Positions 3,556 through 20,330 are shown, numbered from the stretch's first letter. The stretch: 64,000 nt of DNA from an uncultured Acidimicrobiales bacterium (GCA_963731665.1 CAVSWP010000008.1:807678-871677); one strand, 5' to 3'. Numbers and translations are program-made. Notes: generated from the sequence alone by a model not told the origin.

Positions 3556-3931
<376 letters not shown>

Positions 3932-3952
3932 ACCTGGTAGGATATCGAGATA

Positions 3953-3972
3953 TCCCAACTACATCCCAACTA
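3953..3972 (+). promoter_or_regulatory. two tandem TCCCAACTA repeats; candidate integrase arm-type sites (left arm)
   Basis: TCCCAACTA occurs at 3953-3961 and 3964-3972. The same 9-mer occurs twice more at 16181-16200 near attR, in the same orientation. Confidence 0.4.
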
Positions 3973-3987
3973 CCGGGAGGGAATCCG

Positions 3988-5181: not shown

Positions 5182-5757
5182 TTACGAGCGCCGGCCGCCA
5201 CCCCATGATGCGAACGACGACACACGCCTAAAGGACGTTCTTAGAACCTCGTCCCAGTCCTCCCGCGCTGGTTCGACCCCGTGTTCTTGGATGAGGAATC
5301 GCAGAACGTCTTCATAGAAGACGCGCCCCGTTGGGATGTGGAGTTTGCCCAGACCGTGAAACTCAGGGTCGGCACGCCGCAAGTGCAGATGGGGGTAGAT
5401 CGGTTCCACGGAGGCCCATTCCCACGAGTAGAGCTGCGGCTTCAGCGCGTCCGACTCACCAACGGTGTGGGCGTAGTAGTGAGTCGACGCCTTGCGCTCG
5501 GGTGACTCGAACCGCATGTCGTCGACATATGAGTATTCGAGAGTCGAGCGGAGATACAGCGTGGGCGCAGCAGTCCGAAGAGGGATGCTTGTGGGATTCG
5601 TGAAGGCGGCGAAAACGCCGGCACCTCGAGGGGTTATGAACCAGACCGCTTCCCTGCTCACAGTCGAAAGCGAACGGTTCAGGACCCCGAGGAGGCGACC
5701 CTTCGCCTGAGCGTCAGTGCGAGCAGGTTCCCGGTCAGCAGGTGTGTAATTCGACAC
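5182..5757 (-). CDS. hypothetical protein (int-proximal, antisense to the main element operon)
   Basis: Open frame with good coding character. The GTG at 5757 overlaps the upstream small gene by 23 nt. No motif recognised. Confidence 0.45.
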   Translation of the reverse strand: MSNYTPADREPARTDAQAKGRLLGVLNRSLSTVSREAVWFITPRGAGVFAAFTNPTSIPLRTAAPTLYLRSTLEYSYVDDMRFESPERKASTHYYAHTVGESDALKPQLYSWEWASVEPIYPHLHLRRADPEFHGLGKLHIPTGRVFYEDVLRFLIQEHGVEPAREDWDEVLRTSFRRVSSFASWGGGRRS

Positions 5758-5947
5758 CCGCCAGCAGGGCGATGTGGACGACCATCGGGTCCTCCTCCGG
5801 AAGTGCGTCAGCCGCGGCGCGACTCCGGAACTCCTCAATCGACATGTCTAGGTACTTCCGGGCCTGCTCATCGGCGAACCGTTCGGCCTCTTCCGGGGTC
5901 AGCTCGTCTCGACCCTCTTCTACCGCCTGAGAGAGTGCTGCGCTCAT
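5735..5947 (-). CDS. small acidic hypothetical protein (70 aa)
   Basis: ORF with an acidic helical composition (DELTPEEAERFADEQARKYLDMSIEEFRSRAA). It overlaps the downstream gene, which suggests an operon. Confidence 0.45.
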   Translation of the reverse strand: MSAALSQAVEEGRDELTPEEAERFADEQARKYLDMSIEEFRSRAAADALPEEDPMVVHIALLAGVELHTC

Positions 5948-6615: not shown

Positions 6616-6813
6616 ATGCCGGAACTGCCAACCGATCGGCCCTGGACGCTTAACGAGGCTGCCTCCTACCTAAGAGAGAGCCCGCGCACGACCCGGCGGC
6701 GAGCTGCCCGCGGGGACCTCGAGGTAATCCGACCACCTGGGTCCCGAAAGATGCTGTTCGACCCTGCCTCCGTACGTCGGTTCCTTGACGATGCCCGGGT
6801 GGTGGCGCCGTGA
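6616..6813 (+). CDS. excisionase-family / MerR-like HTH DNA-binding protein
   Basis: LNEAASYLRESPRTTRRRAARGDLEVIRPPGSRKMLFDPASVRRFL matches the HTH_17/excisionase pattern. GAAGGG lies upstream of the ATG. Confidence 0.65.
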   Translation: MPELPTDRPWTLNEAASYLRESPRTTRRRAARGDLEVIRPPGSRKMLFDPASVRRFLDDARVVAP

Positions 6814-6995
6814 GCATCACGCCGCTGCCTGGCTGGCGGACACTCCCTCAACTCGCTCAAGCGGTTGGCATTTCCGAGTGGAAGCTTCGCGAGGAAGCCA
6901 AGGCCGGTCGGCTCCGGGTGCGTCGCGTTGGCAGATGCGCCCGGGTGCTCGACGAGGACGCCGCCGCGTGGATGCGCGGGCAGGCGACACCGTGA
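6810..6995 (+). CDS. excisionase-family HTH DNA-binding protein (second copy)
   Basis: LPQLAQAVGISEWKLREEAKAGRLRVRRVGRCARVLDEDAAAWM. The GTG start overlaps the previous stop. Confidence 0.65.
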   Translation: MSITPLPGWRTLPQLAQAVGISEWKLREEAKAGRLRVRRVGRCARVLDEDAAAWMRGQATP

Positions 6996-7942
6996 GCGCC
7001 GACCTCGAGGACCGCATCGGCCCCATTGTCGAGCGCGTGCTGATTGTGGAGTTGCTCGCCGAACGCGGCCACGAACCAACCAAGCGCCAGGGAATGACGT
7101 GGACCTATCACTGTCCACTGCCCGGTCACCTTGACACGAATCCGTCGTTTACCGTGAAGGACGCCAAGTGGCGATGCTGGTCAATCTGCGGGTGCGGTGG
7201 GGACGTGGTTGACCTCGTTATGGCCCTCGACGGCATCAACAGCGCCACTGCCATCGAACAACTGGCTGCGCGGATCGGGCTCGGGCGCGAACCGCGCCCA
7301 CAGGCCCGTGGTCTGAGTCCGGAGAAGGAAAGCGCACTACTTGAGAGTTTCACCGCTAACCGCCAATGGGAGCCCGACGCGGTCGCCGGCGCTGGGCTAT
7401 CGGTCGTGCTGGACGATTTCGGTCGCCCAAGGATTAGATTTCCCTATCGCATCAAGGGCCGCAAGGTCTGGCACCAGGATCGGGCTATCGGATCGGCGGA
7501 GCCGAAATGGCTTGCTCCAAAGGACTCAAGGCGTTTGCTCTACAACGCCGACTCGATCACGCTGGCGGGTCAACGCGGCGGGTGCTGGCTCCTTGAGGGA
7601 CCGTGCGACGTGCTCGCACTTCAGAGCACCTACGAGGCGCCCGCGGCGTTGGGCATTCCAGGAGTTGAAGGTTTTCGCCCCGATTGGGTGGCCGCATTCG
7701 CCGATCTGCAAGGCGTTTTCCTGGTGGCCGACAACGATCCCGCGGGCGAAAAGCTACGGGCGCAGCTAGACGCCCTGTTCGCTCCTTTGACAACGCCGCT
7801 GCTCCATGTGCGGGTTCCCGAGTCGTATAACGACCTCGACGAATGGCGCCGCGGTGCTGGCGCGGATAACGATCAGTTCGACGACGAGCTGCTGGCCGCT
7901 GTCATCGTCGCACAGGCTGAACGGGATCGGATCGACCGATGA
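6992..7942 (+). CDS. DNA primase (CHC2 zinc finger + Toprim)
   Basis: CHC2 finger YHCPLPGHLDTNPSFTVKDAKWRCWSICGCGGDVVDL, plus Toprim-like LLEGPCDVLAL and FLVADNDPAGE. The GTG start overlaps the previous stop, so the track start at 6785 was trimmed. Confidence 0.8.
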   Translation: MSADLEDRIGPIVERVLIVELLAERGHEPTKRQGMTWTYHCPLPGHLDTNPSFTVKDAKWRCWSICGCGGDVVDLVMALDGINSATAIEQLAARIGLGREPRPQARGLSPEKESALLESFTANRQWEPDAVAGAGLSVVLDDFGRPRIRFPYRIKGRKVWHQDRAIGSAEPKWLAPKDSRRLLYNADSITLAGQRGGCWLLEGPCDVLALQSTYEAPAALGIPGVEGFRPDWVAAFADLQGVFLVADNDPAGEKLRAQLDALFAPLTTPLLHVRVPESYNDLDEWRRGAGADNDQFDDELLAAVIVAQAERDRIDR

Positions 7943-8922
7943 GTGAACCGCGGCTAGATGTGCTCGGCGCGGCACCTGTGGGGATGAATGGGCACACCGA
8001 TGAGACTTTCGGACCCATCATCACGGCGGCCGACATCGGCATCATGCCGATTGACTGGCCATCGTTCTGGGCGCAGGAGGTGCCCGAAGAGGACTACGTG
8101 ATCTCGCCGATTGTGCCGGCCGGTCGGCAAACCGGGATCTACAGCGTCGCCAAGACGGGAAAGAGTCTGCTCGCGCTCGACATCAGCGCGGCAGGCGCCA
8201 CAGGACGCTCCATCCTCGGGCAACCACCATCGGCACCGATAGATGTGGTGTACCTCGACCTTGAGATGACCGAGGCCGACTTCCGCGAACGCCTGCCGGA
8301 CCTCGGTTATGGCCCGGACGACGACCTGACGCGGCTGCACTACTTCCAGCTTCCGGCGTTGCCTCCACTGGACACGGACCTCGGTGGCGAGACCGTCCTC
8401 TCGATCTGCACGGAGCGCACGGCCAGCGTCCTGATCGTCGACACCATGGCTCGAGCCGTGCGCGGCGAGGAGAATTCCGCCGACACGTATCGCAACTTCT
8501 ACGCGAGCACTGGGCGTCGGCTCAAGGCCGCAGGGATTGCCCTGCTGCGGCTCGACCACCAGGGCAAGGACCCCGCTCTCGGCCAGCGAGGCTCATCGGC
8601 GAAGGTCGACGACGTGGACGTGGTTTTCAAGATGACCACCGTTGACCGCACCCGTATCCAGCTCACCCGCACCCACAGCCGCGTGCCGTGGGTGCCCGCC
8701 GAGATCGCCATAGATCGTCTCGAGGAGCCAACCCTGCGGCACGTCCTGGCCGGTGATTCATGGCCCGCTGGGACCTCGGACGTGGCGCTGCTGCTCGACG
8801 AGCTCGACGTGGCACTCGACGCCACGGTGGTTGCGGCCGCATCGGCCCTCAGGACCGCTGGCACGGGCAAGCGCAAGGCGTTGGTGATGGCAGCGCTCAA
8901 GTTCAGGAGGACACGTCCATGA
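7939..8922 (+). CDS. RecA-like P-loop ATPase (RepA / DnaB-C-terminal-like, AAA_25 type)
   Basis: Walker A SVAKTGKSLL and Walker B VLIVDTMARAV, plus LLRLDHQGKD. Translationally coupled to the primase. Confidence 0.7.
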   Translation: MSEPRLDVLGAAPVGMNGHTDETFGPIITAADIGIMPIDWPSFWAQEVPEEDYVISPIVPAGRQTGIYSVAKTGKSLLALDISAAGATGRSILGQPPSAPIDVVYLDLEMTEADFRERLPDLGYGPDDDLTRLHYFQLPALPPLDTDLGGETVLSICTERTASVLIVDTMARAVRGEENSADTYRNFYASTGRRLKAAGIALLRLDHQGKDPALGQRGSSAKVDDVDVVFKMTTVDRTRIQLTRTHSRVPWVPAEIAIDRLEEPTLRHVLAGDSWPAGTSDVALLLDELDVALDATVVAAASALRTAGTGKRKALVMAALKFRRTRP

Positions 8923-8932
8923 GGCCCGAAAA

Positions 8933-9097
8933 GGTTCCCGGAACCGTCGCCGCGGGGTCGGTGGGAACCGGACAGGGAACTGGTTCCCATGGGGCCAAGA
9001 GACTGCCCGAAGCCCTGCCTAGGTCGGTTCCCGGAACCGTTGGGAACCGTCGTCGGGGCACCACGGGAACCGGTACCCCGTCTTTAGACGGGAACCG
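8933..9097. repeat. iteron-like cluster of GGGAACCG / CGGTTCCC motifs; candidate replication origin
   Basis: Ten half-sites lie within 165 bp. Palindromic pairs are at 8933-8946, 8975-8988 and 9025-9039; single sites are at 8963, 9042, 9065 and 9090. Confidence 0.5.
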
Positions 9098-9158
9098 GGC
9101 CCGGAGCCGAGAAACGCTCGAGGACAAGGGTCAGAGACTCTTATCCACCGGCGCGGTG

Positions 9159-9356
9159 ATGGTGCTGTTCGCCGACGAGCTTCACATCGTCGCTCGGGTC
9201 AGAGGCGACGCTGGTGTCTACGACACCGAGTGGAGTCGATGGTCGGGGTGGTCGTGTACGTGTCCCAACCTCCACCGCTGTAGCCACCAGGCGGCGGTCG
9301 CCTCGGTCACCACAAAGCCCCTGCTTCATGCCGTCGTGGGTGGTGGTGCCCCGTGA
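9159..9356 (+). CDS. SWIM zinc-finger protein (alternative in-frame start at 8919)
   Basis: WSCTCPNLHRCSHQAAV fits the SWIM CxCxnCxH signature. The upstream in-frame part is low-complexity sequence encoded by the repeat cluster. Confidence 0.55.
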   Translation: MVLFADELHIVARVRGDAGVYDTEWSRWSGWSCTCPNLHRCSHQAAVASVTTKPLLHAVVGGGAP

Positions 9357-9670
9357 GGCCGCCCCGGTCCTGTTCATGTGGAGGTGTCCACCCCGCCGGC
9401 CAGCGCTGTCCCGCCAGCGTGGCCCGACGCGGGACCACTAGAGAGCGCATGGGCCCGGGCTGGGAGTCGATCAGTAGGCGCGTGATCGCTCGAGACGGCG
9501 GTCAGTGCCAACTACGGCGTCCGGGGTGCGCGGGAGTCGCCGACACGGTCGACCACCTCGTCAGTAGAGCTACGGCGCGGAGGCAGGGCTGGGCTGACGG
9601 TGACATCAACGCCGAGTTCAACCTTGTCGCGGCCTGTCGGCACTGCAACGCGAGCAAGGGGAGCCGATGA
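9353..9670 (+). CDS. HNH endonuclease
   Basis: DGGQCQLRRPGCAGVADTVDHLV ... NLVAACRHCNASKG (HNH motif). Confidence 0.85.
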   Translation: MRPPRSCSCGGVHPAGQRCPASVARRGTTRERMGPGWESISRRVIARDGGQCQLRRPGCAGVADTVDHLVSRATARRQGWADGDINAEFNLVAACRHCNASKGSR

Positions 9671-9788
9671 CAGTGAGTGGTCGGATACGCACCGGGGGAG
9701 GGCAAAATGGGGGAAAGCCCAGGTCAGGACCCCCAACAGGCTCCCCAGCACCTGCGCGGGTTTCGGCCGTTTCAGGAGGGGGTTGGCG

Positions 9789-10313
9789 ATGACCAACACC
9801 CGCGGGCCGTTGCCAAAGGCATCGTCCCGGCGCTCACGGGCACGCCAGGCGACCGGTACAGAGGTGGTCTTCGCCCATGCGGTCACGCGTCACCCCACGC
9901 CAGCACCGGAAGCACCAGCCGACCTCGGTGGGCCTGGGATGGTCGTCTGGTCGGACGCCTGGGCGCTCCCCTGGACCGCTGCGGCTGACCGTGGGGCGAT
10001 CCTCAACCTCTGTCGGCTCGAGGACGAACGGGCACTCCTTGCCGCCGCCGTGGAGAGCCACGGCGCCGTGCTCGAGAAGGTCCTGACGAGTGCCAGAGGT
10101 GACGTCGTCGGGACCGAGCTCTACCCGAACCCTGCACACCGGGAGTTACGGCGCATCGACGCCGCTCTCCTGGCGCTACGTGACCGGCTGGGGTTGAGTC
10201 CGCTCTACAGGGCTCGCCTCGGTCTCGCCTTGGTCGAACTGGAGAAGCAGGAGAGCGCCGCCGTTGTCCGCCTGCGGACCTTGTACCGGTCCTATGGGGA
10301 GGAGGGCCAGTGA
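9789..10313 (+). CDS. terminase small subunit (P27-like)
   Basis: Positioned between HNH and TerL. N-terminal basic segment, then ...YPNPAHRELRRIDAALLALRDRLGLSPLYRARL, typical of P27-family TerS. AGGAGGGGG lies upstream of the ATG. Confidence 0.6.
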   Translation: MTNTRGPLPKASSRRSRARQATGTEVVFAHAVTRHPTPAPEAPADLGGPGMVVWSDAWALPWTAAADRGAILNLCRLEDERALLAAAVESHGAVLEKVLTSARGDVVGTELYPNPAHRELRRIDAALLALRDRLGLSPLYRARLGLALVELEKQESAAVVRLRTLYRSYGEEGQ

Positions 10314-11866
10314 ACGCCGTCCGCTCCATTCCCGATACCGTGCCGCCCCCGGATCGCACCCTCGGCTGGGCCGTTCTCGATTGGACCGCCGCGTGGCTGT
10401 TGCAACCGGACGGCCCCACGGCCGGCGAGCCGTGGGAGTTCACCCGGGAGCAGGCGCGCTGGGTCTTGAGGTGGTACCGGATCGACGCCAGGGGGCGCTT
10501 CGCCTATCGGCGGGGCACGCTGAGGCGCTGTAAGGGTTGGGGCAAGAATCCCGTTTTAGACATCGTGGCCGCTGTGGAGTTGTGCGGACCGTGCCGGTTC
10601 GACGGCTGGGACGGCACAGGCCACCCCGTGGTCATCCCTCACCCCGCGCCGTGGATTCAGATCGCCGCCGTCTCCCAGGACCAGACCAAAAACTCCATGA
10701 CGCTGTTTCCGGCGCTGTTCTCTGACGCCGCCGTCAAAGAGTTTGACATCGACATTGGGAAGACAGTCGTTTATGCCCGCAACGGTGCCGGTCAGATCGA
10801 GTCGGTCACCAGCTCGCCTCGCGCGCTCGAGGGCAAGCGCCCCTCGTTGGTCGTGCTCGACGAGTCCCAGCACTGGCTCCCGTCGAATGACGGGTGGGAG
10901 ATGGCTGAGTCCATTCGCCGCAACGCGGCCAAGGCCCGAGAGGGGGCTGCCCGCACCCTTGAGATAACCAACGCGCATCTCCCCGGTGAGGGTTCGGTGG
11001 CAGAGGCCACGTTTGAGACGTGGAGGGCGGCCGGGGGGGCGGTACCGGGACTCCTATACGACAGCCTCGAGGCGCCACCAGTCGTGGACCTTAGTGACCT
11101 CGACGCGCTTCGCGAGGCCCTGACCTTGGCGCGGGGCGACTCCACCTGGCTGGACATTGACCGGCTGGTGGCTGAGATCCAGGACCCGACCACGCCCGCG
11201 TCGACGGCGCGGAGGTTCTATCTAAATCAGGTCGTGGCCAGCGGTGCGGAGCAGTGGATCGACGCCGCGTTATGGGACGACCTCGCGCGCCCAGATCGTG
11301 AGGTCCCCGACGGCGCGCCCATAATCGCCGCGTTTGATGGGTCTTTCAATAACGATTCCACGGCCGTCGTCGGCATTCTCGTTGCTGAAACGCCCCACGT
11401 TTTCGTCATCGGACACTGGCAGCCCGCGGTGCCCGGTGATGAGGTGGACATCCTCGACGTTGAGGAAGCTCTGCGCCAGGCGGCACGGCGTTACAAGGTG
11501 TTGGAGCTGTGCGCGGATCCGTTTCGTTGGGCGAGAAGCTTGCAAATCTTGTTCGACGACGGCGTCCCGGTGTGCAACTTCCCGCAAAATGCGACCCGCA
11601 TGTCGCCAGCCACCGCTCGCTTCGCCGCCACCGTGGCCACAAGAGGCCTCACACACTCCGGCGACGTGAACCTTAGGACTCACGTTCTAAACGCCGTGGT
11701 GGTGAGCGATACCCGCGGCCGGCGCATCGTCAAGGACTCAAAGAAATCACCGCGCAGGATCGACCTCGCCGTCGCCGCGCTCATGGGCCTGGACAGATTC
11801 GCACAAGGTGAAGACCCGCAGAGGGAACTACTACGGCAACGGAATAGGAGAGCAAATGTCGGCTGA
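10310..11866 (+). CDS. terminase large subunit
   Basis: 518-aa ORF with an ATPase Walker B-like SLVVLDESQHW and a C-terminal nuclease half (AAFDGSFNNDSTAVV ... DLAVAALM). Gene order is HNH-TerS-TerL. Confidence 0.8.
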   Translation: MNAVRSIPDTVPPPDRTLGWAVLDWTAAWLLQPDGPTAGEPWEFTREQARWVLRWYRIDARGRFAYRRGTLRRCKGWGKNPVLDIVAAVELCGPCRFDGWDGTGHPVVIPHPAPWIQIAAVSQDQTKNSMTLFPALFSDAAVKEFDIDIGKTVVYARNGAGQIESVTSSPRALEGKRPSLVVLDESQHWLPSNDGWEMAESIRRNAAKAREGAARTLEITNAHLPGEGSVAEATFETWRAAGGAVPGLLYDSLEAPPVVDLSDLDALREALTLARGDSTWLDIDRLVAEIQDPTTPASTARRFYLNQVVASGAEQWIDAALWDDLARPDREVPDGAPIIAAFDGSFNNDSTAVVGILVAETPHVFVIGHWQPAVPGDEVDILDVEEALRQAARRYKVLELCADPFRWARSLQILFDDGVPVCNFPQNATRMSPATARFAATVATRGLTHSGDVNLRTHVLNAVVVSDTRGRRIVKDSKKSPRRIDLAVAALMGLDRFAQGEDPQRELLRQRNRRANVG

Positions 11867-12056
11867 ATACGACGCCAAAAGCGGTGCGGTACAAAAGAAG
11901 CGCCGCGGACCGATGTATATCAACTTGAACGCCGATATCGACGCCGAGTTTGCCCGGTACGAGGGGACCGAAGCGACGCCGACGGAGGAGCGCTGGGTAA
12001 CCGAGCCGGTCCCCGTGGCTTGGCTCGAGGAACTACTCAATCGCCCCCGTGACTGA
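11856..12056 (+). CDS. hypothetical protein
   Basis: 66-aa ORF after GGAATAGGAG. No motif recognised. Confidence 0.4.
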   Translation: MSAEYDAKSGAVQKKRRGPMYINLNADIDAEFARYEGTEATPTEERWVTEPVPVAWLEELLNRPRD

Positions 12057-12342
12057 GATACCTCACGACTGGTGGTACGCGTCAGGCGTCGACGTCGTCG
12101 GCGCCACCAGCCTGCTGCCAGCCGACGAGTTGCGCGACCTGGTGGCGAATCTGAGGAGCTCCATCGGGCGCCTACCTTCTCGAGACGACGACGACGTGGC
12201 CGTGTTGCGTGCCGGATTCCTCGCGCTCGCCGAGTGTGTCGCGAATGACACCGACCCTACCGAGGCCGCGAGGGATTATGACGCCGCCGTGATCCGGGCG
12301 ATCGCCGATCGCAGGGCCAAGCGGCGCGCCCGGACGGTCTGA
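12049..12342 (+). CDS. hypothetical protein
   Basis: 97-aa ORF that overlaps its neighbour (operon-like). Confidence 0.45.
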   Translation: MTEIPHDWWYASGVDVVGATSLLPADELRDLVANLRSSIGRLPSRDDDDVAVLRAGFLALAECVANDTDPTEAARDYDAAVIRAIADRRAKRRARTV

Positions 12343-12344
12343 CC

Positions 12345-12788
12345 ATGCTTGAGTGGAGGCGACCGCCTGACTTCGCCCGCGTTGGCGAGGAGACCGTCAT
12401 CGTGCACGACTCGGGCGCGATTACCGTCCCGGCCCACATTGCCCATGAGTGGGCCAAAGTTTTGCGGCCGGCCATGAAAGACGCCGAGGACGCCGGCAGG
12501 CACGTGTTCACCGAGGCGGCCTGGGACGCCGCCGGGGCACTCGCCGCGTGCGCTCTGCGCTTCGAGGACCTAAGCGCGTCAACCACTCCGGTAGACGGCC
12601 CTTCCGATGGGCGGTTGACATCTGACACGGTGAGAACCGTGGAGATCACAATCGCCGAATATGCCAAACGCACGGGCCGAGCTCGTCAGAGCGTCTGGCG
12701 CAGCGTCGCCAAGCGCAAGTCCCTGCCCGGCAGGTTCGACCCCGACCGCGGCCTGTACGTGGTCACAGTGCCAGAGGACGTGGCATGA
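12345..12788 (+). CDS. hypothetical protein with a possible C-terminal HTH
   Basis: 147-aa ORF. The segment ITIAEYAKRTGRARQSVWRSVAKRKSL looks like a helix-turn-helix. Confidence 0.45.
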   Translation: MLEWRRPPDFARVGEETVIVHDSGAITVPAHIAHEWAKVLRPAMKDAEDAGRHVFTEAAWDAAGALAACALRFEDLSASTTPVDGPSDGRLTSDTVRTVEITIAEYAKRTGRARQSVWRSVAKRKSLPGRFDPDRGLYVVTVPEDVA

Positions 12789-12955
12789 CCGACAAGGTCC
12801 ACAAACTGACCGTGGAGCAACGGCTGGACCGCCTGGAGGAGCTTGTCGTCGGCGTCGCCTTCGGGCTTGCTCAGGCGAGCGGCGCTGCCTGTGTTTACCC
12901 GGTCCGAGAGCCGCTCATAGCCGTCCGGGAAGACATCGAGGCTCGCAATGCCTGA
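12785..12955 (+). CDS. small hypothetical protein (56 aa, below the track cut-off)
   Basis: Read directly from the DNA. The ATG overlaps the previous stop (ATGA), and its stop overlaps the next start at 12948. No internal stops. Confidence 0.3.
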   Translation: MTDKVHKLTVEQRLDRLEELVVGVAFGLAQASGAACVYPVREPLIAVREDIEARNA

Positions 12956-13442
12956 CGAAGCCGACGACATTCTCAGGCGGATTCAAGCGCTCGAGGGCGG
13001 CCGACGATTCCCCTCTCTGCCGCGAGACGACGCGTGGCCGGCGGTGAACCATCACCCCGGACCTCCCCGACCAGAAACGGACTGGGAGAAGCGACAGCGG
13101 CAGATTCGCGAGCGGGAACAGGCCGTCAGGGACGCATACAAGGCCGATTGCGACGCCCGGGAGGCTGCCAACCTCGCCGAGTGGAACGCTCGACGCGACG
13201 CCCAAGCCTCTGAACGCGGCATGGCAAGGAGTCGGCTGGCGGCGGTGGTCAACGAGATTCGGGCCATAGAGGAAGCGCTGCAACCCAAAGTGGCCGAGAA
13301 GCGGCGACTCCTAGAAGTCATTCATCGTTTCGATGACGCCAAGATGCCGAAGGTGGAGCATCCACCGCCGCCGCGCCCAGGTTCGCCGCTCGACGGCAGG
13401 GGCGGCTATTTGACGCCGTACGGAGTCGACCGAGCGCAGTGA
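12948..13442 (+). CDS. hypothetical coiled-coil protein
   Basis: 164-aa ORF with charged heptad-like composition. Confidence 0.45.
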   Translation: MPDEADDILRRIQALEGGRRFPSLPRDDAWPAVNHHPGPPRPETDWEKRQRQIREREQAVRDAYKADCDAREAANLAEWNARRDAQASERGMARSRLAAVVNEIRAIEEALQPKVAEKRRLLEVIHRFDDAKMPKVEHPPPPRPGSPLDGRGGYLTPYGVDRAQ

Positions 13443-13457
13443 TAAAGGACGAAGACA

Positions 13458-13802
13458 ATGAGCGATGAGGTTCCCGAGCCCAGGTATGTCTGGCTTTACA
13501 GGGTCAACTACAACCGACAGCCCTCCTACGAAGAGATGTGCGTCGAGCACGAACACCTTGGTCAGCGGGCGCAGGACCTATTTGCCCAGGGGCTTGACTC
13601 TGAGAAACGGGGTGACAGTCGCACGCACCTCGCCGCTCTGAGGTCCGAGTATGACGCCTTGTTCGCTGACCTCAAGGAGAGCAAGCGCTACCTCGAGGCC
13701 TACAACGAACGGTGGGCAGAACAGCGGGGCCAGTACATCAAAGAACGCGACCGCCGGTGGCGGCGAATGCTGATTGCCGCCTACGGCCATGCCCCAAGTT
13801 GA
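13458..13802 (+). CDS. hypothetical protein
   Basis: 114-aa ORF after AAAGGACGAAG. Confidence 0.45.
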   Translation: MSDEVPEPRYVWLYRVNYNRQPSYEEMCVEHEHLGQRAQDLFAQGLDSEKRGDSRTHLAALRSEYDALFADLKESKRYLEAYNERWAEQRGQYIKERDRRWRRMLIAAYGHAPS

Positions 13803-14337
13803 ACCGCCGCGTCCGCTCGAGGTGGCGAGTTTCCACGAAGGGGGACATGCGGTTCTCGGGCACCGCCTCGGTTATGCCGTTCGCAGCCTTACGTTGCGCC
13901 CGCCGCAGACATCGTTCGCGAAGCCTATTGAAGACCCCATGGCCGACCTTGCCGTCAGTGTTGCCGGTCGCTGCGCCGAGCTAATCGCGTTCCCGGAGCT
14001 GGGCGACCGGCCCAACCCGAACCGCGACGACCTGGCGTGGACTGACGCTGACGCCTGGCGCTGCACCGCCGACCTCGGCGCTATGGGCGCACTGATCGCG
14101 GACGTCACGGTGCGTGTGACCGAGTGGCTCATAACAGATTGGCGTCTCGTGGAGCGCATTGCTTACGCGCTGCTCATGGCCCGGCCCGAACGTCTCAACG
14201 CCGATGACATCCGTCGGCTTGTTCCTTGTCGGCGCGTACCCGCGAGGGCTTTCTTACCTTTCACCTCGCGGGACGTGTCGTCAGGAGCGGTGGGCGGCCC
14301 GGGGCAGTCTCGACCCCGGGCCGCCCAGGTGGCGTAA
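13789..14337 (+). CDS. stand-alone FtsH-like (M41) zinc metallopeptidase domain protein
   Basis: SFHEGGHAVLGHRLGY (HEXXH), VAGRCAELIAF (compare FtsH GGRAAEELIF) and a C-terminal helical region resembling the M41 domain. No AAA+ module. Confidence 0.55.
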   Translation: MPQVEPPRPLEVASFHEGGHAVLGHRLGYAVRSLTLRPPQTSFAKPIEDPMADLAVSVAGRCAELIAFPELGDRPNPNRDDLAWTDADAWRCTADLGAMGALIADVTVRVTEWLITDWRLVERIAYALLMARPERLNADDIRRLVPCRRVPARAFLPFTSRDVSSGAVGGPGQSRPRAAQVA

Positions 14338-14418
14338 ACCGATGGCAAGGGCACTCGCCGAGGACTTCGCCGGGTTTATCGGGTCAGGCCCAGCCCTCGT
14401 CGGGGCCGGAAGCAGGGC

Positions 14419-15075
14419 GTGGCTGTCGTGAGGAAAGCCATGGGACTGAAGGACGTATGCGGGATACGTTGGGTCGATGGAGGCCTTAGACCCGTGACCC
14501 TCTTGGCGGTCGTCGAGAGTGGCCCTGTGATGCTCATGGCGGCCGATAGCCAGGAGCTTCACGATAACTACGAGGCGGGCTTCAGGGTCACGGTCGACAA
14601 GCTGGTTCAAATGGGCGACGAGAAGATCGTTTGGGGCTACTGGGGCCACACCGAGGCTGGGGCCAAGTTCGCCCACCGATTGGCCCAGGAATCCTTTGGC
14701 GACTGGGACGCCCTCGACGCGTGGGTAAGCCCGCAGAGGCTTGCTCTCAACGGCGAACACACTCCATTCGGAGTGCTGGTCGCTGGCTGGCTCGGGGGGG
14801 TTCGGAGGGCGATGGCATACGGTGACGGCGTTCTCTCGGGGACCGACTTCATGTTTTGCGGGAACGGGTGCCTTGTCGGCCAGGTGGCGTGGGAGGTGAC
14901 AACGGGACTCGACGTCCCCCTGGACGAGCGTTTCAAGCTGGTCATGACAAAGACCATCGAGGGTGGCCAACCGACCCTCGGCTTCCCCCTCAACATGTGG
15001 GAGATCACGGAGCATGAGCGGCCGAGGCGTATCCGAGGAACAGACCAGCCCAAGCACGTCAGCCTCGGCGGCTAG
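14419..15075 (+). CDS. proteasome-beta / HslV-like Ntn-hydrolase fold protein (tentative)
   Basis: RPV-TLLAVVESGPVMLMAADSQ mirrors the proteasome beta pattern G-TTIVAV..GVVLAADSR (Thr1, Asp17). VDKLVQMGDEKIVWGYWG places a Lys near position 33-35. Confidence 0.4.
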   Translation: MAVVRKAMGLKDVCGIRWVDGGLRPVTLLAVVESGPVMLMAADSQELHDNYEAGFRVTVDKLVQMGDEKIVWGYWGHTEAGAKFAHRLAQESFGDWDALDAWVSPQRLALNGEHTPFGVLVAGWLGGVRRAMAYGDGVLSGTDFMFCGNGCLVGQVAWEVTTGLDVPLDERFKLVMTKTIEGGQPTLGFPLNMWEITEHERPRRIRGTDQPKHVSLGG

Positions 15076-15135
15076 GGAGGCTTTGCTCATCTAGGCTTTC
15101 TTCGATGGCGTCCGGCCTCGTGGCTCCGTAAGTCC

Positions 15136-15621
15136 GTGCATGAGCGCCGAGGATTCGGAATCGCACTCAGCACCACACTTGTTGGCGTTGGATTTGGAGC
15201 CTTTCTCGCCTACTACATCGCTATGGCAGCTTTGGCCCCGAGCCGCCGCGGCGATTATGGGTGGGTACCGGTTCTGGCTCTTGCCATGGTGGGTGTGGCC
15301 TTTGCCGTGGGCGTGGCGGTCTTCGTCAGCCTTTACAGAGAGTCAACCCGACGGCGTGCTCTGGGAGCATTCGCCAAGCGTGGGCGCGAGCTGGGAGTGA
15401 ACTACCAAAATCAGGTCGGTGAACGCCAAGCGGTCCAGGATTGGATAGACGAAACGAGGACCTGGCTGGACACGAACCTCCCCGACTATGCTGAACTTTT
15501 CTCAACCCCGGTTCTTGGCCGAATGCCCCCACAGGACCTCAATAACGTCGTCAGTGATGAGGTTCGAGCTGTGATCCTCAGTCACTTGCAGCGGCTAGCA
15601 GAAATCATGATCAAGCTATGA
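15136..15621 (+). CDS. membrane protein (2 TM helices + cytoplasmic domain)
   Basis: Two hydrophobic helices (LSTTLVGVGFGAFLAYYIAMAAL and VPVLALAMVGVAFAVGVAVFVSL). Confidence 0.5.
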   Translation: MHERRGFGIALSTTLVGVGFGAFLAYYIAMAALAPSRRGDYGWVPVLALAMVGVAFAVGVAVFVSLYRESTRRRALGAFAKRGRELGVNYQNQVGERQAVQDWIDETRTWLDTNLPDYAELFSTPVLGRMPPQDLNNVVSDEVRAVILSHLQRLAEIMIKL

Positions 15622-15694
15622 CTTTCCTAGACCAAGTTATCCGGCTCGCCACGCATATCCGCGCTTTGCTCCCCGGTACTGCCCAGGATGCAAC

Positions 15695-16150
15695 CTAGAG
15701 GGGCAGCCTGACAGCGTTGATCTCCTCGATGGCATCGTCGACAAGCTCGAGAATGGATTGCAGTGCCGCCTCGTCGATGGGGAAAGCCTCCACGGGGCCG
15801 CGGCCTCGGTCCTTCCGAACCCAGCGAAAGGGACGCTGGGCGTTGCCGATCGTGGCCGGTCGAGCGTGCAAGATGTCGTTGCGAGGCCCCGCAAGCCGGG
15901 TTAGCCACTTAGCGCAGGCGGCCAGGAAGGCTTGTGCACGCGCGTCGGAAACACCCGCGAGGTGCTGACGGATCTCGGCACCGAGCCCTCCTGTGGTGCG
16001 CCATGCCAGGTTGTCGATAGACAATTCAGGAGGGAGGCCCGGTAGGCGCGCAAGGTCGCCTAGGAGTCCACCTTCGATGTAGCTGATGGCATAAGCCGCT
16101 CGGCCGATCTGAAGGACGAAATCGTCCTCGGGGAATGGGACTCGGGACAT
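15695..16150 (-). CDS. hypothetical protein (attR-proximal, opposite strand)
   Basis: 151-aa ORF with good coding character. No motif recognised. Confidence 0.45.
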   Translation of the reverse strand: MSRVPFPEDDFVLQIGRAAYAISYIEGGLLGDLARLPGLPPELSIDNLAWRTTGGLGAEIRQHLAGVSDARAQAFLAACAKWLTRLAGPRNDILHARPATIGNAQRPFRWVRKDRGRGPVEAFPIDEAALQSILELVDDAIEEINAVRLPL

Positions 16151-16180
16151 GGCCGCACAGGTTAGCCAGGAGCATCTTCA

Positions 16181-16200
16181 TCCCAACTATGTCCCAACTA
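16181..16200 (+). promoter_or_regulatory. two TCCCAACTA repeats; candidate integrase arm-type sites (right arm)
   Basis: TCCCAACTA occurs at 16181-16189 and 16192-16200, matching the pair at 3953-3972. Confidence 0.4.
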
Positions 16201-16303
16201 TCGCCGCGGTTTCGTCGTGCTCGACTCCCACAACTGTCGGCATTTCCCCTGGTCAGCGATGTGATACGCGCTTTGACACTCCCCCACTCGCCTACCTGGT
16301 AGT

Positions 16304-16331
16304 ACCCCGCCTACAGGCCGACTCACCGTCA
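16304..16331. repeat. attR core (displaced original rnpB 3' end)
   Basis: Identical 28-mer to 3904-3931. Confidence 0.8.
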
Positions 16332-17012
16332 CGAATCACTCTGAGCAGGAACTTCACACCAGGTAGCGGTTCGTCTGACACAGATCTGACACACGAGCCA
16401 GCGTGGAGATATCCCCGTGCGACTCGCCTCGGCCCCCGCGCGTGTCGTGGGACGACAAACGTGAGCGGCCCGAAGCAGTCAGAGACCGAAGGCGCCCGGC
16501 TTGTAGCTACCGCATTTCGGATTGGTACAGGCGACCTCGGGGGGACGAGGGAGTCGACCCTCCTCTTCGACGCGAACATCAACGTTATCCACTCGGGCCG
16601 GGGACCCTCACCGCTTACATCGTCCGTTGGGTTTCACTTGAAGTTCACCTCCTTGATTCCCAAGGTATGCGCCATTTCGGCGGGTCCGACGGACCCCTGT
16701 TCCAGAGCGAGTGGGAGTACCGGGAGCAAGTCCCGAGCCTTCAATGCTCGTGTCGAAATCTAAGGTGTTTCAAATCGAACCGGAGAACGATCGGGCGCAA
16801 ATATCGGACGGTCCAGGACACGTCGAGCCCGCGGCTGTGATCCGGCATGTGCGAGCAGTCCGAGGCCATCACTGGACATCCGATAGCGGATGCGCTACGC
16901 AACGGCCAACCGTGATGGCCCCATGGGGTTGTCCTGTACCCGGCAGGGATCGGATGGTCACCATTAGGAAATCACTCAGAGAAAGGGCGGTGGTACCGAT
17001 CGGGTTGTGTCG

Positions 17013-20000
17013 TTACCGCTGGTTATCGTCAAGCAGTTGGAGTGCCCACGAAGCGCGGCGTTCGACGTTCCCATATCCGTTGACCGCTGCAGCGGACTGC
17101 GCCCTAGTGAGCAGTTCCCGAGCCCTCTCAGTGTCTCCCGGGGTACGGCGTTCGGCGAGCATCCTTCCCCACAGCAGGTCCGTACGGGTGGCGAAGAACT
17201 TTGCGCCCACACGGTCGCTGAACGCTTCCGATTGGGCGAAGTAGGTGTCCGCCTCGTTGTATCGGCCGAGGACGGCAGCGAGGCCACCGAGGAAGTGGCT
17301 GACCGGGCCTGATGTCGTGATGCTGCCAAGAACGGTCAGCTGATCGGCCCACGGAGTCAGTCGATCGAACAGCGGACCGGCGTAATTCGGGTCCCGGCAC
17401 TCGATGGCCGCGTCCGCGTAGCAAACCATTCCCGTGGTCCAGGCCTGGTCCAAGGGGAGATCGAAATCTGCGGCCGCAAACGCCGCTAGCAGGCGGCGTG
17501 CGTCAGCAGTGCGGTCCGCTTCCGCGTGGGCCGCAGCCAGGGCCGCCGTGAATACGGGGAGCCTGGGATTGTCGGTCGCTGCCTGCTCGATGAGTCGGAC
17601 CAGCTCGCCCATCGTTCCGCGTTGCATGCTCACAATCATGAACTGTCCGCCGAAGATGGTTTCGGCGTCGGGCTCGCCGCTGTCGGTTCCGATCTGGTGA
17701 GCCTCGGTGGCCAAATGCTCGGCCCGATCGGTGTCTCCGGCGATCTGCGCTCGCACGGTGCGCGTGAGGGTTTCGAAATAGTTCAATGTCGGCTGGTCGA
17801 GCTGTTCTATGAGCGACCCGCGAATCTCAAGGCAGCGGTCCAACTCGTCGATGTCGCCAGCGCGGGCGGCAGCTTCAGCTCGCCATTCTGCCGCCCAGAA
17901 GAGCTGTACCGGGTCACCGACCCGTTCGGCTCGAACCAGAGCGTCGGCCGACCAGGCCAACGACTGCTCAAGCAAAGACGGTACGCCAAGCGGGACGTTG
18001 ATATGGTTGAGGACCCGCACGATGATGGCGTCGTCACCAGAAGACTGGGCCATGCCCAGGGCCTCGTCAGCGAGGGCCTGGCGGCGTTCAAGTGGGCTCC
18101 CGAAGGCGAGTTCCGAACACAAGGTCGCGAGTACGAGCGCCCGATCAGGGCTGTCCGCCGAAAGCCGATCGACGGCCAGCTCCAGGACTGCGACCTTGTC
18201 GGCGTCGATGGCACCGGCGCCGACACTCACCCCCCGGTCGTTGGCCAGGGCGGCGGCCACAAGGCGTTCGGTGTCACCCAGGTCGGCCGCCCGGCGAGAA
18301 GCGCCGAGGAGGGTGTCGCGAAAAGCGGGGTCCCCGGTCTGGCGCTGGGCGGTGCCCAACCCGATCGCCAGGTCGATGCCCAGAACAGGATCGGGGTCAG
18401 TTGCTTGGGGGTAGAGGTCGAGGGCCTGCGCGTAATAGCGAAGCGCCTCGGCCGGGGCGAGGGCATGGAGGGCGGCGTCGCCCGCTTGTCGGGAGTAGCT
18501 GATGGCCTTGGCCAGGTCGATGGGTTGGGTGGCACGGAACCAATGACGGGCCAGTTCGCCCACCCTGTTCCCGGGGCGATCCCCGCATAGATCCTCCAAG
18601 GCTTCGGCCACCTGTCGGTGTCCACGTGCTCGGCGGTTGTGACCGAGGTCTTCATACAGCGTGTGCTGTATGAGGGCGTGGGCGAAGGCATACCGACTCG
18701 TGTCGGCAACCTCGCGTACCAGGGCCGCAGCCGCGGCGGCGTCGAGGATGTCGAGCAGATCGTCTTCCGATGTCTTTGTGGCTCTAGCTAGAAGGTCGAG
18801 GTCGAAGTCCCGACCGATGACCGCCGCCATCGACAGCACCCGTCCGGCGTCTTGTCCGAGTCGTCCGACCCGCGCCCCGATCACCACACGGACGCTGTCG
18901 GGCAGCGCCATCTGTTCGAGCGAATCATCAGCGGTCCACCGCCCCGTAGCATCTTGGTGGATGGCCCCAGTCTCCGAAAGATGACGCAACACCTCGCTTA
19001 CGAAGAAGGGGTTGCCGTCAGTCTCGCGATAGACGGCGTGGGCGAGGTCCACCCCGGCATCATCGAGTGTGTGCCCAGCGGCCGTTTCCAAAAACGACAC
19101 CACCCCGCTGTCGTCCAGGCCGACCAGCTCTACGTGAGACACACCGTGCTGTCTGTGGAGCGCCGCCAGGGTGTCAAGTAAGGGATGGAACTGCGACAAC
19201 TCGCTGTCGCGATAGGTGCCGAGGATGAGCACTCGCATGGCTTGTTCGGCCGCGGCCAGGTGTCGAAACAGCAACAAGCTGCCTTTGTCGGCCCACTGCA
19301 GGTCGTCGAGGACGATGACGACAAGCTGGTGCGCTGATGCCCTAACCAGCAGTCCCACGACGGCGGCGAAGAGCAGGTAGCGCTCTGTGTCGGAGTCGGT
19401 GGCCTTCGACGGCGGGAGGTCAGGGATGCGGCTGGCCAGAGCAGGAACCAACCGGGCCAGTTCCGACCCGTGTTCGGAGACGTGGGCGCGGAGCCGATCT
19501 TCGGGAGCCTGGGTGACGTAATGACCGAGGGCCTCGGCGAAGAGCTGGTACGGGGTGGCGAGATCTTCTTCGCAGTGACCGAACAGCACACACGCACCGG
19601 CGTCGTAGGCGGCCCTGGCCGCCTCGGCCACCAGAGTCGTCTTTCCCATGCCGGCTTCCCCCGAAACGAGCAGGACCTCGCGCCCCTCGCTCCCGGCGAC
19701 GCGCTTGGTGGCGTCGGTAAGCGCTTGCGTTTCTGCTTCGCGCCCGACCACACCGATGGTGGGACGCACGGCCAGACGACCAGGAAGTGGGATGGACGTC
19801 TCGGTGTCGGCCCCTCCGAGAGGCTCCCACAGCACCTCGACGGTCTCGACGGAGTCCGACAAGCCCTTCAGGGTCCGCTCCCCGAGTGGGCGACACTCGT
19901 GACGGCTGCGCCGACCGGCCATGGCCCGGACCACATCGGTGGCCAGGACTTGCCCGCTCTCGCAGGTGGCACATAGCCGAGCCGCCTCGACGACCGGATC

Positions 20001-20330
20001 GCCGAAGTAGTCGTCGTCCTCTTTGCTGACCTCGCCACCGCTCAGCCCGACCCGCAACCCAACCGAGTGCTCCCGGTCTCGATTGTCCCGCTCGACGCCC
20101 TGTTGCATCACCACGGCGCACGCCAGGGCAGCCGCCGCCGAACCGAAGACCACCATGAGCCCATCACCCAAGTTCTTCACCTCGGTCCCGCCTGATTCGG
20201 CGATGGCCTGGCGCAGGATCGAGAAGTGCTCCCGGCGCACCTCGTCGGCGGCCTCGGCCGACAGGCGCTGCGACAACTCCGTAGAGCCCACCTGGTCGGT
20301 GAACAGGATCGTCGCGCTCTCGGTACCCAA
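17013..20330 (-). CDS. class III adenylate/guanylate cyclase - STAND (AAA_16) NTPase - TPR protein
   Basis: N-terminal cyclase motifs ILFTDQVGSTEL and KNLGDGLMVVFGS. Walker A GEAGMGKTTL and Walker B VVIVLDDLQWAD. Long helical TPR-like C-terminus. No C-terminal LuxR-type HTH is visible. Confidence 0.85.
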   Translation of the reverse strand: MGTESATILFTDQVGSTELSQRLSAEAADEVRREHFSILRQAIAESGGTEVKNLGDGLMVVFGSAAAALACAVVMQQGVERDNRDREHSVGLRVGLSGGEVSKEDDDYFGDPVVEAARLCATCESGQVLATDVVRAMAGRRSRHECRPLGERTLKGLSDSVETVEVLWEPLGGADTETSIPLPGRLAVRPTIGVVGREAETQALTDATKRVAGSEGREVLLVSGEAGMGKTTLVAEAARAAYDAGACVLFGHCEEDLATPYQLFAEALGHYVTQAPEDRLRAHVSEHGSELARLVPALASRIPDLPPSKATDSDTERYLLFAAVVGLLVRASAHQLVVIVLDDLQWADKGSLLLFRHLAAAEQAMRVLILGTYRDSELSQFHPLLDTLAALHRQHGVSHVELVGLDDSGVVSFLETAAGHTLDDAGVDLAHAVYRETDGNPFFVSEVLRHLSETGAIHQDATGRWTADDSLEQMALPDSVRVVIGARVGRLGQDAGRVLSMAAVIGRDFDLDLLARATKTSEDDLLDILDAAAAAALVREVADTSRYAFAHALIQHTLYEDLGHNRRARGHRQVAEALEDLCGDRPGNRVGELARHWFRATQPIDLAKAISYSRQAGDAALHALAPAEALRYYAQALDLYPQATDPDPVLGIDLAIGLGTAQRQTGDPAFRDTLLGASRRAADLGDTERLVAAALANDRGVSVGAGAIDADKVAVLELAVDRLSADSPDRALVLATLCSELAFGSPLERRQALADEALGMAQSSGDDAIIVRVLNHINVPLGVPSLLEQSLAWSADALVRAERVGDPVQLFWAAEWRAEAAARAGDIDELDRCLEIRGSLIEQLDQPTLNYFETLTRTVRAQIAGDTDRAEHLATEAHQIGTDSGEPDAETIFGGQFMIVSMQRGTMGELVRLIEQAATDNPRLPVFTAALAAAHAEADRTADARRLLAAFAAADFDLPLDQAWTTGMVCYADAAIECRDPNYAGPLFDRLTPWADQLTVLGSITTSGPVSHFLGGLAAVLGRYNEADTYFAQSEAFSDRVGAKFFATRTDLLWGRMLAERRTPGDTERARELLTRAQSAAAVNGYGNVERRASWALQLLDDNQR

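Follow-up and report, generated by a model that had tools for sequence, protein, structure and literature searches.

Four adjacent genes, two of them protease-like, next to attR in a satellite-like element within rnpB of an uncultured Acidimicrobiales bacterium: probably separate genes and not one system

The 64,000-nucleotide (nt) stretch of DNA analyzed here, referred to throughout as the window, comes from an uncultured Acidimicrobiales bacterium (GCA_963731665.1 CAVSWP010000008.1:807678-871677; in our own handles G000:C8:807678-871677) whose assembly of 4.03 Mb is 94% complete. It contains a 12.4-kb integrative element with satellite-like gene content, and at one end of this element lie four open reading frames (ORFs), here termed P1 to P4, which are predicted to encode a stand-alone FtsH-type (M41-like) protease domain, a proteasome-beta/HslV-like protein, a protein with two transmembrane (TM) helices, and a protein of unassigned family, respectively (Table 1). 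An earlier note, written from the sequence, had proposed genes at 13789-14337, 14419-15075, 15136-15621, and 15695-16150, and all four ORFs were found at these coordinates with a guanine-plus-cytosine (GC) content typical of coding DNA (0.44-0.54 at codon position 2 and 0.61-0.79 at position 3), within a window of 0.60-0.72 GC and a host genome of ~65% GC. P1, P2, and P3 lie near one another on one strand; P4, as that note had described, occupies the opposite strand. Searches of PADLOC-DB 2.0 with P1-P4 and four upstream ORFs returned no family at E ≤ 0.1.

Table 1. Features of the integrative element, with the four genes under study listed first (positions counted from the first letter of the window)
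Feature	Coordinates	Strand	Basis or remark
P1, predicted M41-like zinc peptidase domain, 182 aa	13789..14337	+	Conserved domain residues 1-148; tail 158-182 disordered, not conserved
GGAGG, Shine-Dalgarno-like	14479..14483	+	10 nt before GTG 14494
P2, predicted proteasome-beta/HslV-like N-terminal-threonine protein, 193 aa	14494..15075	+	Longest ORF from 14419
P3, 161-aa protein, two predicted TM helices and soluble C-terminal part	15136..15621	+	Hydropathy
P4, 151-aa protein, family unassigned, convergent with P3, last gene before attR	15695..16150	-	ORF
114-aa helical protein, upstream partner of P1	13458..13802	+	ORF; nothing above threshold in Pfam, PHROG, or NCBIfam
rnpB (RNase P RNA, class A)	3561..3929	+	Rfam RF00010, 228.8 bits, E 4.7e-73, full length 1-367
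attL, left copy of 31-nt direct repeat, overlaps rnpB 3' end	3901..3931		Repeat family D3
attR, right copy of 31-nt repeat, 30/31 identical to attL	16301..16331		Repeat family D3
Tyrosine integrase	3868-5163 (ORF frame)		Between repeats
DnaG-type primase	6785-7942		Between repeats
AAA_25 helicase	7939-8922		Between repeats; sole ATPase of element
Weak SWIM-finger protein	8760-9356		Between repeats
HNH endonuclease	9353-9670		Between repeats
TerS	9600-10313		Between repeats
TerL	10310-11866		phrog_9, E 2.7e-78

The integration target of the element is the 3' end of rnpB, which the element restores with its own copy after using the gene as attachment site. Its two bounding repeats lie 12,400 nt apart, and a 391-nt contig from a metagenome run (X2) covers window positions 16304-16400 and is preceded by 30 letters equal to positions 3874-3903. 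This contig is an uninterrupted rnpB fused to the right flank, hence an empty site that gives independent support to the borders, and borders and empty site together place P1-P4 as the last genes before attR. A literature search on rnpB as an integration site found nothing relevant. Short contigs identical to parts of 12000-16400 were recovered from four runs belonging to four studies (peat/soil metagenomes), one of which may be the source sample, so that they offer no independent evidence of spread; none of them bridges two of P1-P4. Across 11800-16500, a promoter/terminator scan gave counts no higher than in shuffled sequence.

Word-based protein searching with P2 returned three proteins, and a HMMER search of 1.84 billion representatives returned 51 at E ≤ 1e-3, including 15 at ≤1e-10 and 2 at ≤1e-30; the 10 relatives that were looked up all originated from metagenomes. 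An alignment (A1) was built from P2 and 37 of the 51 matches, giving 38 rows. Left out were P2's own database entry (P0001) and 13 matches that were either short fragments or the weakest of the split ones (P0014, P0019, P0035, P0036, P0038, P0042, P0045, P0048-50, and P0052-54). Among these relatives, which were 21-37% identical to P2, the residues expected of a threonine protease were kept almost throughout. Counted from the start of the longest ORF at 14419, T27 (Thr1) occurred in 37/37 rows covering its column, D43 in 38/38 (Thr+16, exactly Asp17), K61 in 38/38 (Thr+34, i.e., the Lys33 equivalent shifted by +2, as in Lys35 spacing), and G73 in 33/38 (Thr+46, Gly47), while G123, to which no proteasome number was assigned, occurred in 38/38. 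When compared with the PDB, the A1 profile matched HslV at 7.6e-6, beta2 subunits at 7e-4, and BPH at 0.0078, and its Thr, Asp, Lys, and G-x-G segment aligned on those of HslV. The Pfam Proteasome model matched a single A1 member (1/38) and the NCBIfam HslV model two (2/38), none of the members matched a dedicated family, and P2 itself was recognized by neither the Pfam model nor any NCBIfam model.

The AlphaFold2 (AF2) model of P2 (pLDDT 88.2, pTM 0.83; residues 2-21 disordered) yielded at least 500 Foldseek matches at E ≤ 0.001, the top ones being beta subunits at 1.3e-8, and all 33 matches listed were proteasome chains, nearly all of them beta. VIA-align superimposed 180 residues on a beta subunit (Z 19.9, rmsd 2.7) and 176 residues on Anbu (Z 19.6, rmsd 2.6), with T27 of the model falling on residue 1 of the mature chains. 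By profile and predicted structure, P2 is a proteasome-beta/HslV-like N-terminal nucleophile protein of the MEROPS T1 kind with an alpha-beta-beta-alpha sandwich fold, which bears out the Thr1, Asp17, and Lys assignment made in the earlier note, and we infer that it is a divergent peptidase with enzymatic activity.

The same note had allotted P2 a propeptide of roughly 24 residues, which is probably an artifact of taking the longest ORF. The database gene call for P2 (P0001, 193 aa, MTLL...) starts at GTG 14494, ahead of which lies the GGAGG, and the residue preceding Thr in A1 is Met in 25 proteins, Val in 11, and Lys in 1, with 17/38 proteins beginning exactly M-T. In all 16 related genes inspected (16/16), ATG or GTG directly preceded the Thr codon, in many cases with a purine-rich stretch upstream. 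Because the GGAGG, the database gene call, and the M-T pattern of the family agree, P2 most likely starts at GTG 14494 as Met-Thr, like HslV, and the 26 N-terminal residues of the long ORF are most likely not translated. The lack of a propeptide agrees with a passage in Fuchs, Alva, and Lupas 2021 (PMC8665760), according to which propeptides occur in most beta and HslV subunits and in no other proteasome-like homolog. Removal of the Met, if it takes place, would expose Thr1 as the nucleophile, and the equivalents of Asp17, Lys33, and Gly47 are present.

Assembly of P2 was predicted from four copies of residues 27-218 with the protein's own alignment, a set-up that differs from the one for which the tool was calibrated. 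The four copies scored 0.58, compared with 0.01 for the best control, contacts agreed by at least 71% between runs, and partner pLDDT was at least 80; the score mark was reached by 20/30 proteins solved as one-chain pairs and 1/23 solved as single chains. The confident interface was a two-fold contact, not a ring, formed by residues 152-165 and 174-183 (helices H3/H4). A passage in PMC8665760 describes H3 and H4 as the helices joining two beta rings. P2 probably self-associates via H3/H4 in some oligomeric state, as judged from the modeled contact, and, by analogy with BPH, it probably works without an ATPase partner.

P1 carries HEGGH and AGRCAELIAF and has no AAA+ or TM part. Given that HEXXH alone is weak evidence, the FtsH likeness of P1 was tested further. 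As a single sequence, P1 remained below the threshold of the Pfam M41 model (PF01434; E 0.073, 13.4 bits versus a cut-off of 29.9) and matched FtsH in the PDB at E 0.035, and a word-based protein search found only P1 itself and one frame-shifted near-copy (P0005). A six-frame search of 401 phylum genomes gave matches in three of them (G000 at two places, G074, and G434), of which the G434 match was spurious and fell inside unrelated genes. A profile of the three true P1 sequences then recovered 11 proteins, two of which were P1 itself and its paralog. The resulting alignment (A4) held 10 sequences, two of them fragments without the N-terminus, and the frame-shifted P0005 was left out.

Within this family, whose members are 25-50% identical to P1, H16, E17, and H20 were kept in 8/8 rows covering them. 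The A4 profile matched FtsH in the PDB at 2e-8, with two stretches spanning the HEXXH/G-R-A-A-E part and the C-terminal helices, and its top nine rows were FtsH or Yme1. The AF2 model of P1 (pLDDT 82.7) gave 32 Foldseek matches at E ≤ 0.001, those listed being FtsH, FtsHi, AFG3L2, and Yme1 only, and it superimposed on the isolated FtsH protease domain (2di4_A) with TM-scores of 0.61/0.63. In FtsH the third zinc ligand is an Asp or Glu after the G-R-A-A-E helix; a conserved acidic residue may take this part in P1, where D86 is acidic in 9/10 A4 rows and D88 is Asp in 6/10. Profile and model together indicate that P1 is an M41-like protease domain without unfoldase or membrane anchor, and not an FtsH, in line with what its HEGGH and GRCAELIAF segments had suggested in the earlier note.

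Relatives of P1 among viruses were sought in several ways. Its best match among viral models (BFVD A0A6J5RJ76, E 8.9e-6) came from an uncultured tailed phage and is a 'Peptidase M41 domain-containing protein' of 214 aa, and some of the small Atlas clusters that bear the name Peptidase family M41 are viral. Tblastn of P1 and of P2 against 50,697 phage records gave no match, no related loci were found in viral contigs with the P1 alignment A3, and a literature search found no study of phage-encoded M41 or FtsH-like proteases.

The surroundings of P1 recur elsewhere. The ATG of P1 at 13789 overlaps the 3' end of the upstream 13458-13802 ORF by 14 nt, and a paralog of P1 in G000, 55% identical over residues 4-145, lies in a second element beside a tRNA-Gly gene (locus L039). 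In that element the integrase ORF is split in two; further genes encode an XRE-type regulator, a replication initiator, and SWIM, HNH, and helix-turn-helix (HTH) proteins. Copies of genes 12785-12955 and 13458-13802 of the window are also present there, with 63% and 45% identity, respectively. The SWIM, 12785, and 13458 gene copies precede the P1 paralog in the same order as in the window, and the 13458-like gene is directly upstream of the P1-like gene, again overlapping its start. Downstream of the paralog the genes differ from those of the window: three encode proteins of 132 aa, 288 aa (multi-TM), and 238 aa, none of which matched a family, and a RES/HTH pair comes next. In G074, a 139-aa relative of P1 is the second-to-last gene of an integrase-primase element beside a tRNA-Val gene, after which come chromosomal CLC-channel and SulP genes. 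P1 travels with the backbone, notably the overlapping upstream gene, in 2/3 of the elements having it, and it looks like a conserved backbone gene of this element family, not accessory cargo. It is probably translationally coupled to the small helical upstream gene, and we infer that it would act in the life cycle of the element as a regulatory or anti-repressor-type protease, cutting accessible, unstructured targets that are few in number or only one; alternatively, it might act on or with the host FtsH. The L039 element (G000:C8:345000-364999, element at ~7200-18240, tRNA-Gly(gcc)) is apparently decayed, with integrase pieces at 17040-18020 and 17704-18141, no TerS or TerL, and the RES-domain/HTH pair in its far end at 7198-9073. 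No att repeats were found for the L039 and L040 elements at the settings used.

The P2 family had a different and sparser distribution. Among the genomes of 61 relatives, three matched P2 (G000, G009, and G016). Among 401 phylum genomes, 14 matched the A1 profile at E ≤ 1e-5, and 13/14 of these matches belonged to a separate family of 231 aa (A6). Among 401 order genomes, four matched at E ≤ 1e-8 (G000, G034 at 3e-30, G661, and G501); the G501 match was an N-terminal fragment and that of G661 scored like the A6 family, both having been screened by tblastn only, and full-length members of P2's own family were found in 2/401 (G000 and G034). The second A1-family gene of G000, on contig 13, lies next to a GNAT gene in an insertion sequence (IS)-rich island near clpP; the genes of G009 and G016 lie in the same clpP island, that of G016 being truncated and having an Abi_2 gene nearby, and the G034 gene sits between mazG and eno among housekeeping genes. 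Searches with P2 alone against genome contigs and viral contigs, and with a three-sequence alignment (A2) against metagenome contigs, found no related loci. On these occurrences, the P2 family appears rare, patchy, and invisible to Pfam, and P2 would be accessory cargo.

The clpP variable island itself, compared in three genomes of the genus (G000:C13:277000-289247, L021; G009, L004; G016, L005), contains an XRE regulator, a lipoprotein gene, a GNAT gene, and the P2 paralog; the G000 copy has three ISXO2-like transposase genes and the G016 copy adds Abi_2. The A6 family (L022-L034, 13 phylum genomes) consists of well-conserved 231-aa proteins with an ATG/GTG-Thr start (MTVVLALRC...DSQIT...GSG) that differ from the canonical 20S beta subunit in length and start.

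P3 was confirmed as a putative 2-TM protein by two hydrophobic peaks (Kyte-Doolittle 1.8 over residues 7-34 and 2.8 over residues 40-67), beyond which ~95 aa make up a soluble tail. Its only Pfam matches (E up to 10) were sub-threshold, among them MHYT (18 bits versus a cut-off of 21) and an actinobacterial holin family (E 0.2), and no relatives were found in five genomes except for one match at E 0.009 over the hydrophobic part. P4 has one paralog in another variable region of G000 (contig 12; 29% identity by tblastn, 33% in alignment A5), with which it shares R-N-D-(I/V)-(L/I)-H-A-R-P, and this paralog together with the coding-type GC of its minus-strand ORF speaks for the gene that the earlier note had placed there. 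The paralog (L052, G000:C12:16000-35999, at 10139-10597) is a solitary gene in a region with few others; a DDE transposase and a pentapeptide-repeat protein of 593 aa are encoded nearby. P4 had no Pfam (E up to 10), PHROG, NCBIfam, or PADLOC match, its profile found nothing in the PDB, and its Atlas matches were unnamed clusters only; matches in G196 and G422 were discarded as alternative-frame and low-complexity. HEPN RNases combine an R-x4-6-H motif with a four-helix HEPN fold, and R90-N-D-I-L-H95 of P4 (R-x4-H), conserved in its one paralog, has a similar spacing; no Pfam, PADLOC, or PDB profile match supports the assignment. Single-sequence PDB searches with P3 and P4 gave chance-level matches. 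P3 and P4 would be further cargo genes, unrelated to the others.

To judge whether P1-P4 belong together, their co-occurrence was followed at four other P2-family loci, three of which represent one chromosomal island in one genus, and at two other P1-family loci. None of the four P2-family loci (0/4) had a relative of P1, P3, or P4 within ~10 kb (tblastn, 20-kb stretches), and neither of the two P1-family loci (0/2; 20 kb each at L039 and in G074, hmmsearch with A1) had a P2-family gene. Relatives of P1, P3, and P4 were likewise absent from 12 A6-family stretches of 20 kb, as searched by tblastn with the upstream small ORFs included. Across whole genomes, the A4 profile picked out two small P1-family genes in G000 and one in G074, so that of the four genomes with a P2-family gene only G000 has any; its only matches in G009, G016, and G034 were to long reading frames (568-753 aa, E 4e-5 to 4e-4), presumably the FtsH genes of those genomes. 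These results suggest, with a probability that we put at roughly 0.65, that P1-P4 do not form one system but are separate genes that share the attR end of the 12.4-kb satellite-like element in rnpB. The combination of two proteases and a membrane protein that the earlier note had regarded as a single system did not recur at any of the loci examined, an outcome that the note itself had named as refuting its reading. Its placement of the genes at the attR-proximal, accessory end of the element was upheld by the att repeats and the empty site, although P1 looks like backbone and not cargo.

Several points weigh against this reading or parts of it. The co-occurrence sample is small, three of its four P2 loci being one island and its P1 loci numbering two, and the metagenomic contigs of the 51 P2 and 11 P1 proteins stand outside the count. 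The adjacency and shared direction of P1, P2, and P3 leave room for co-transcription and a local functional link, which is possible for P2 and P3 in particular. As regards the individual proteins, P2 has Asn at the position of the Ser in the G-S-G of HslV and beta subunits, and the Asp of FtsH that serves as third zinc ligand was placed on different P1 residues by the HMMER alignment and by reading of the motif. The four-copy run of P2 was off calibration and gave a two-fold contact instead of a ring, and its score may only mirror likeness to solved proteasome/HslV complexes. The satellite status of the element was drawn from gene content alone.

The reading that departs most from separate genes is that P1, P2, and P3, perhaps with P4, form one membrane-linked module of two proteases that blocks phages or manipulates a helper phage. 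In its favor, these neighboring genes share one direction and occupy the accessory end of a mobile element, both proteases keep their catalytic residues, and neither has its usual ATPase partner. Such a module is nonetheless very unlikely in view of the 0/4 and 0/2 counts, of three genomes (G009, G016, and G034) with a P2-family but no small P1-family gene and of one (G074) showing the reverse, of a P3 without relatives in those genomes, of the lack of PADLOC matches for any of the genes, and of a P1 that travels with upstream backbone genes and not with P2. A narrower proposal leaves P1 as unrelated backbone and sees P2, alone or with P3, as a defense or abortive-infection moron that degrades phage or host proteins. 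P2-family genes are cargo here and in the IS-rich clpP island of G000, G009, and G016, in the G016 copy of which Abi_2 is found; the family is rare and patchy (3/61 relatives; full length in 2/401 order genomes); and PMC8665760 reports proteasome-like families (PPH, AAH) that were spread by phages. A role of P2 in defense or helper interference, with or without P3, is plausible from these mobile and variable contexts. Yet no PADLOC model matched, the G034 gene lies between mazG and eno, the three island copies amount to one ancestral context instead of three independent ones, and the P2-P3 pair is not conserved since P3 has no relatives, so that the moron proposal as a whole must be called unlikely, if a serious candidate.

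Two further explanations concern what the proteins are. One or both proteases could be inactive remnants or structural proteins that keep the fold, with some of the ORFs not expressed. P1 scores 13.4 bits against the 29.9 of the M41 model, P2 has no Pfam match, and P2 lacks the Ser of G-S-G, but the catalytic residues are kept in distant relatives (P2 Thr 37/37, Asp 38/38, Lys 38/38; P1 HEXXH 8/8). Their retention across 21-37% (P2) and 25-50% (P1) identity argues for selection on activity, and with the coding-like GC of the ORFs and the good Shine-Dalgarno site of P2 it makes inactivity improbable. Alternatively, P2 lies downstream of TerS/TerL, where head genes usually sit, and might be a virion-assembly protein such as a prohead protease or scaffold, a possibility the earlier note had itself raised as one that a fold search could settle. 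P2 has no PHROG or Pfam match, its relatives occur in non-phage contexts, and its proteasome-beta fold (at least 500 Foldseek matches at E ≤ 0.001; Z 19-20) refutes a prohead protease or scaffold, leaving this explanation with practically no chance.

Beyond the reading as four separate genes, a more elaborate mechanism can be imagined, which we regard as a long shot. In it, P2 and the 2-TM P3 would form a satellite-borne, ATPase-independent proteasome-like effector that is triggered by helper infection and degrades phage or host proteins at the membrane to block or redirect the phage, and P1 would be the helper-sensing regulatory protease of the element. If true, this would be the first role of proteasome-like homologs in the conflict between phage, satellite, and host. 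A literature search on HslV or the proteasome in anti-phage defense found nothing relevant.

The remaining genes of the element (Table 1) are accompanied by further small ORFs without any family match in Pfam, PHROG, and NCBIfam scans and by a candidate repressor gene at 5182-5838, and no capsid, portal, or tail families were found among the element ORFs scanned. From this gene content the element appears to be phage-satellite-like. TerL is followed, at 11808-13802, by a co-directional series of six small ORFs of 82, 97, 147, 56, 164, and 114 aa, which overlap or abut and matched no family. Two or more of these (12785 and 13458) have copies in the second element of G000, and the 147-aa ORF resembles an HTH protein encoded there. 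Outside the element, the ~680 bp between attR and the next gene (16332-17012) have no convincing ORF, flat position-specific GC, and no Rfam match at the gathering threshold. The product of that gene, which lies at 17013-20330 on the minus strand directly outside attR, is 1105 aa long and combines an adenylate/guanylate cyclase domain with a STAND-type ATPase (AAA_16) and TPR-like repeats; PADLOC matched it weakly to Pycsar cyclases (E 4.5e-6).

Prokaryotes have a large group of proteasome-like proteins other than HslV and the 20S core, and this group has hardly been studied. The locus described here appears to show a divergent and rare member of it (51 clusters in 1.84 billion representatives) as cargo of an actinobacterial integrative element, and the Met-Thr start and complete catalytic set predicted for P2 make it tractable for expression and assay. 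A bare FtsH-type domain as an apparent backbone gene of a family of small integrative elements raises the question of what an M41 domain without an unfoldase cleaves. That the genes do not travel together saves the effort of testing P1-P4 as one defense system.

Compared with known systems, P1 resembles the FtsH protease domain (MEROPS M41, PF01434) in its fold (TM-score ~0.6), HEXXH, G-R-x-A-E helix, and C-terminal helices. Unlike P1, FtsH combines this domain with an AAA+ module and a membrane anchor, and the domain itself measures ~200 aa versus ~145 aa in P1, whose Pfam score is below the cut-off. The stand-alone 'Peptidase M41 domain-containing' proteins of tailed phages are likewise small M41-like domains without an ATPase and are encoded by viruses or mobile elements; their likeness to P1 is structural or by feature only.

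For P2, HslV (ClpQ) is the best family profile match (7.6e-6), with Thr1, Asp17, Lys33, and G-x-G aligned and a Met-Thr start in common. However, P2 matches no HslV model, has Asn for the Ser of G-S-G, shares only ~12-14% identity in structural alignments, and has no hslU-type ATPase gene beside it or in the element. The actinobacterial A6 family is also related (hhalign against A1, probability 99.2%, E 1.6e-19) and has a Met/Val-Thr start; in contrast to P2, it keeps G-S-G, is longer, is recognized by the Pfam Proteasome model (PF00227) in both members scanned, and occurs in 13/401 phylum genomes, the P2 family being much rarer. BPH (E 0.0078 to the P2 profile), Anbu (Z 19.6), and the families described in PMC8665760 (AAH, PPH, DAH, and others) share with P2 the compact Thr1/Asp17/Lys33 arrangement and, according to that paper, have no propeptide or known unfoldase, some being carried by phages. 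The paper reports 22 new proteasome-like families, including the phage-borne PPH and AAH, and states that no phage-linked transfer of AAH was observed in Actinobacteria. Set beside these clusters by their description, P2 would be a rare further member of an already cataloged proteasome-like group, now on an actinobacterial mobile element, and the supplementary data of the paper may already hold its family.

The element as a whole, known here from its genes alone, departs from phage satellites in having TerS, TerL, and HNH together and in targeting rnpB instead of a tRNA gene. It nevertheless resembles them (phage-inducible chromosomal island [PICI]-like elements; Streptomyces MiniFlayer) in being small and integrative, in combining an integrase with replication and packaging genes without recognized virion genes, and in carrying accessory genes at its far end.

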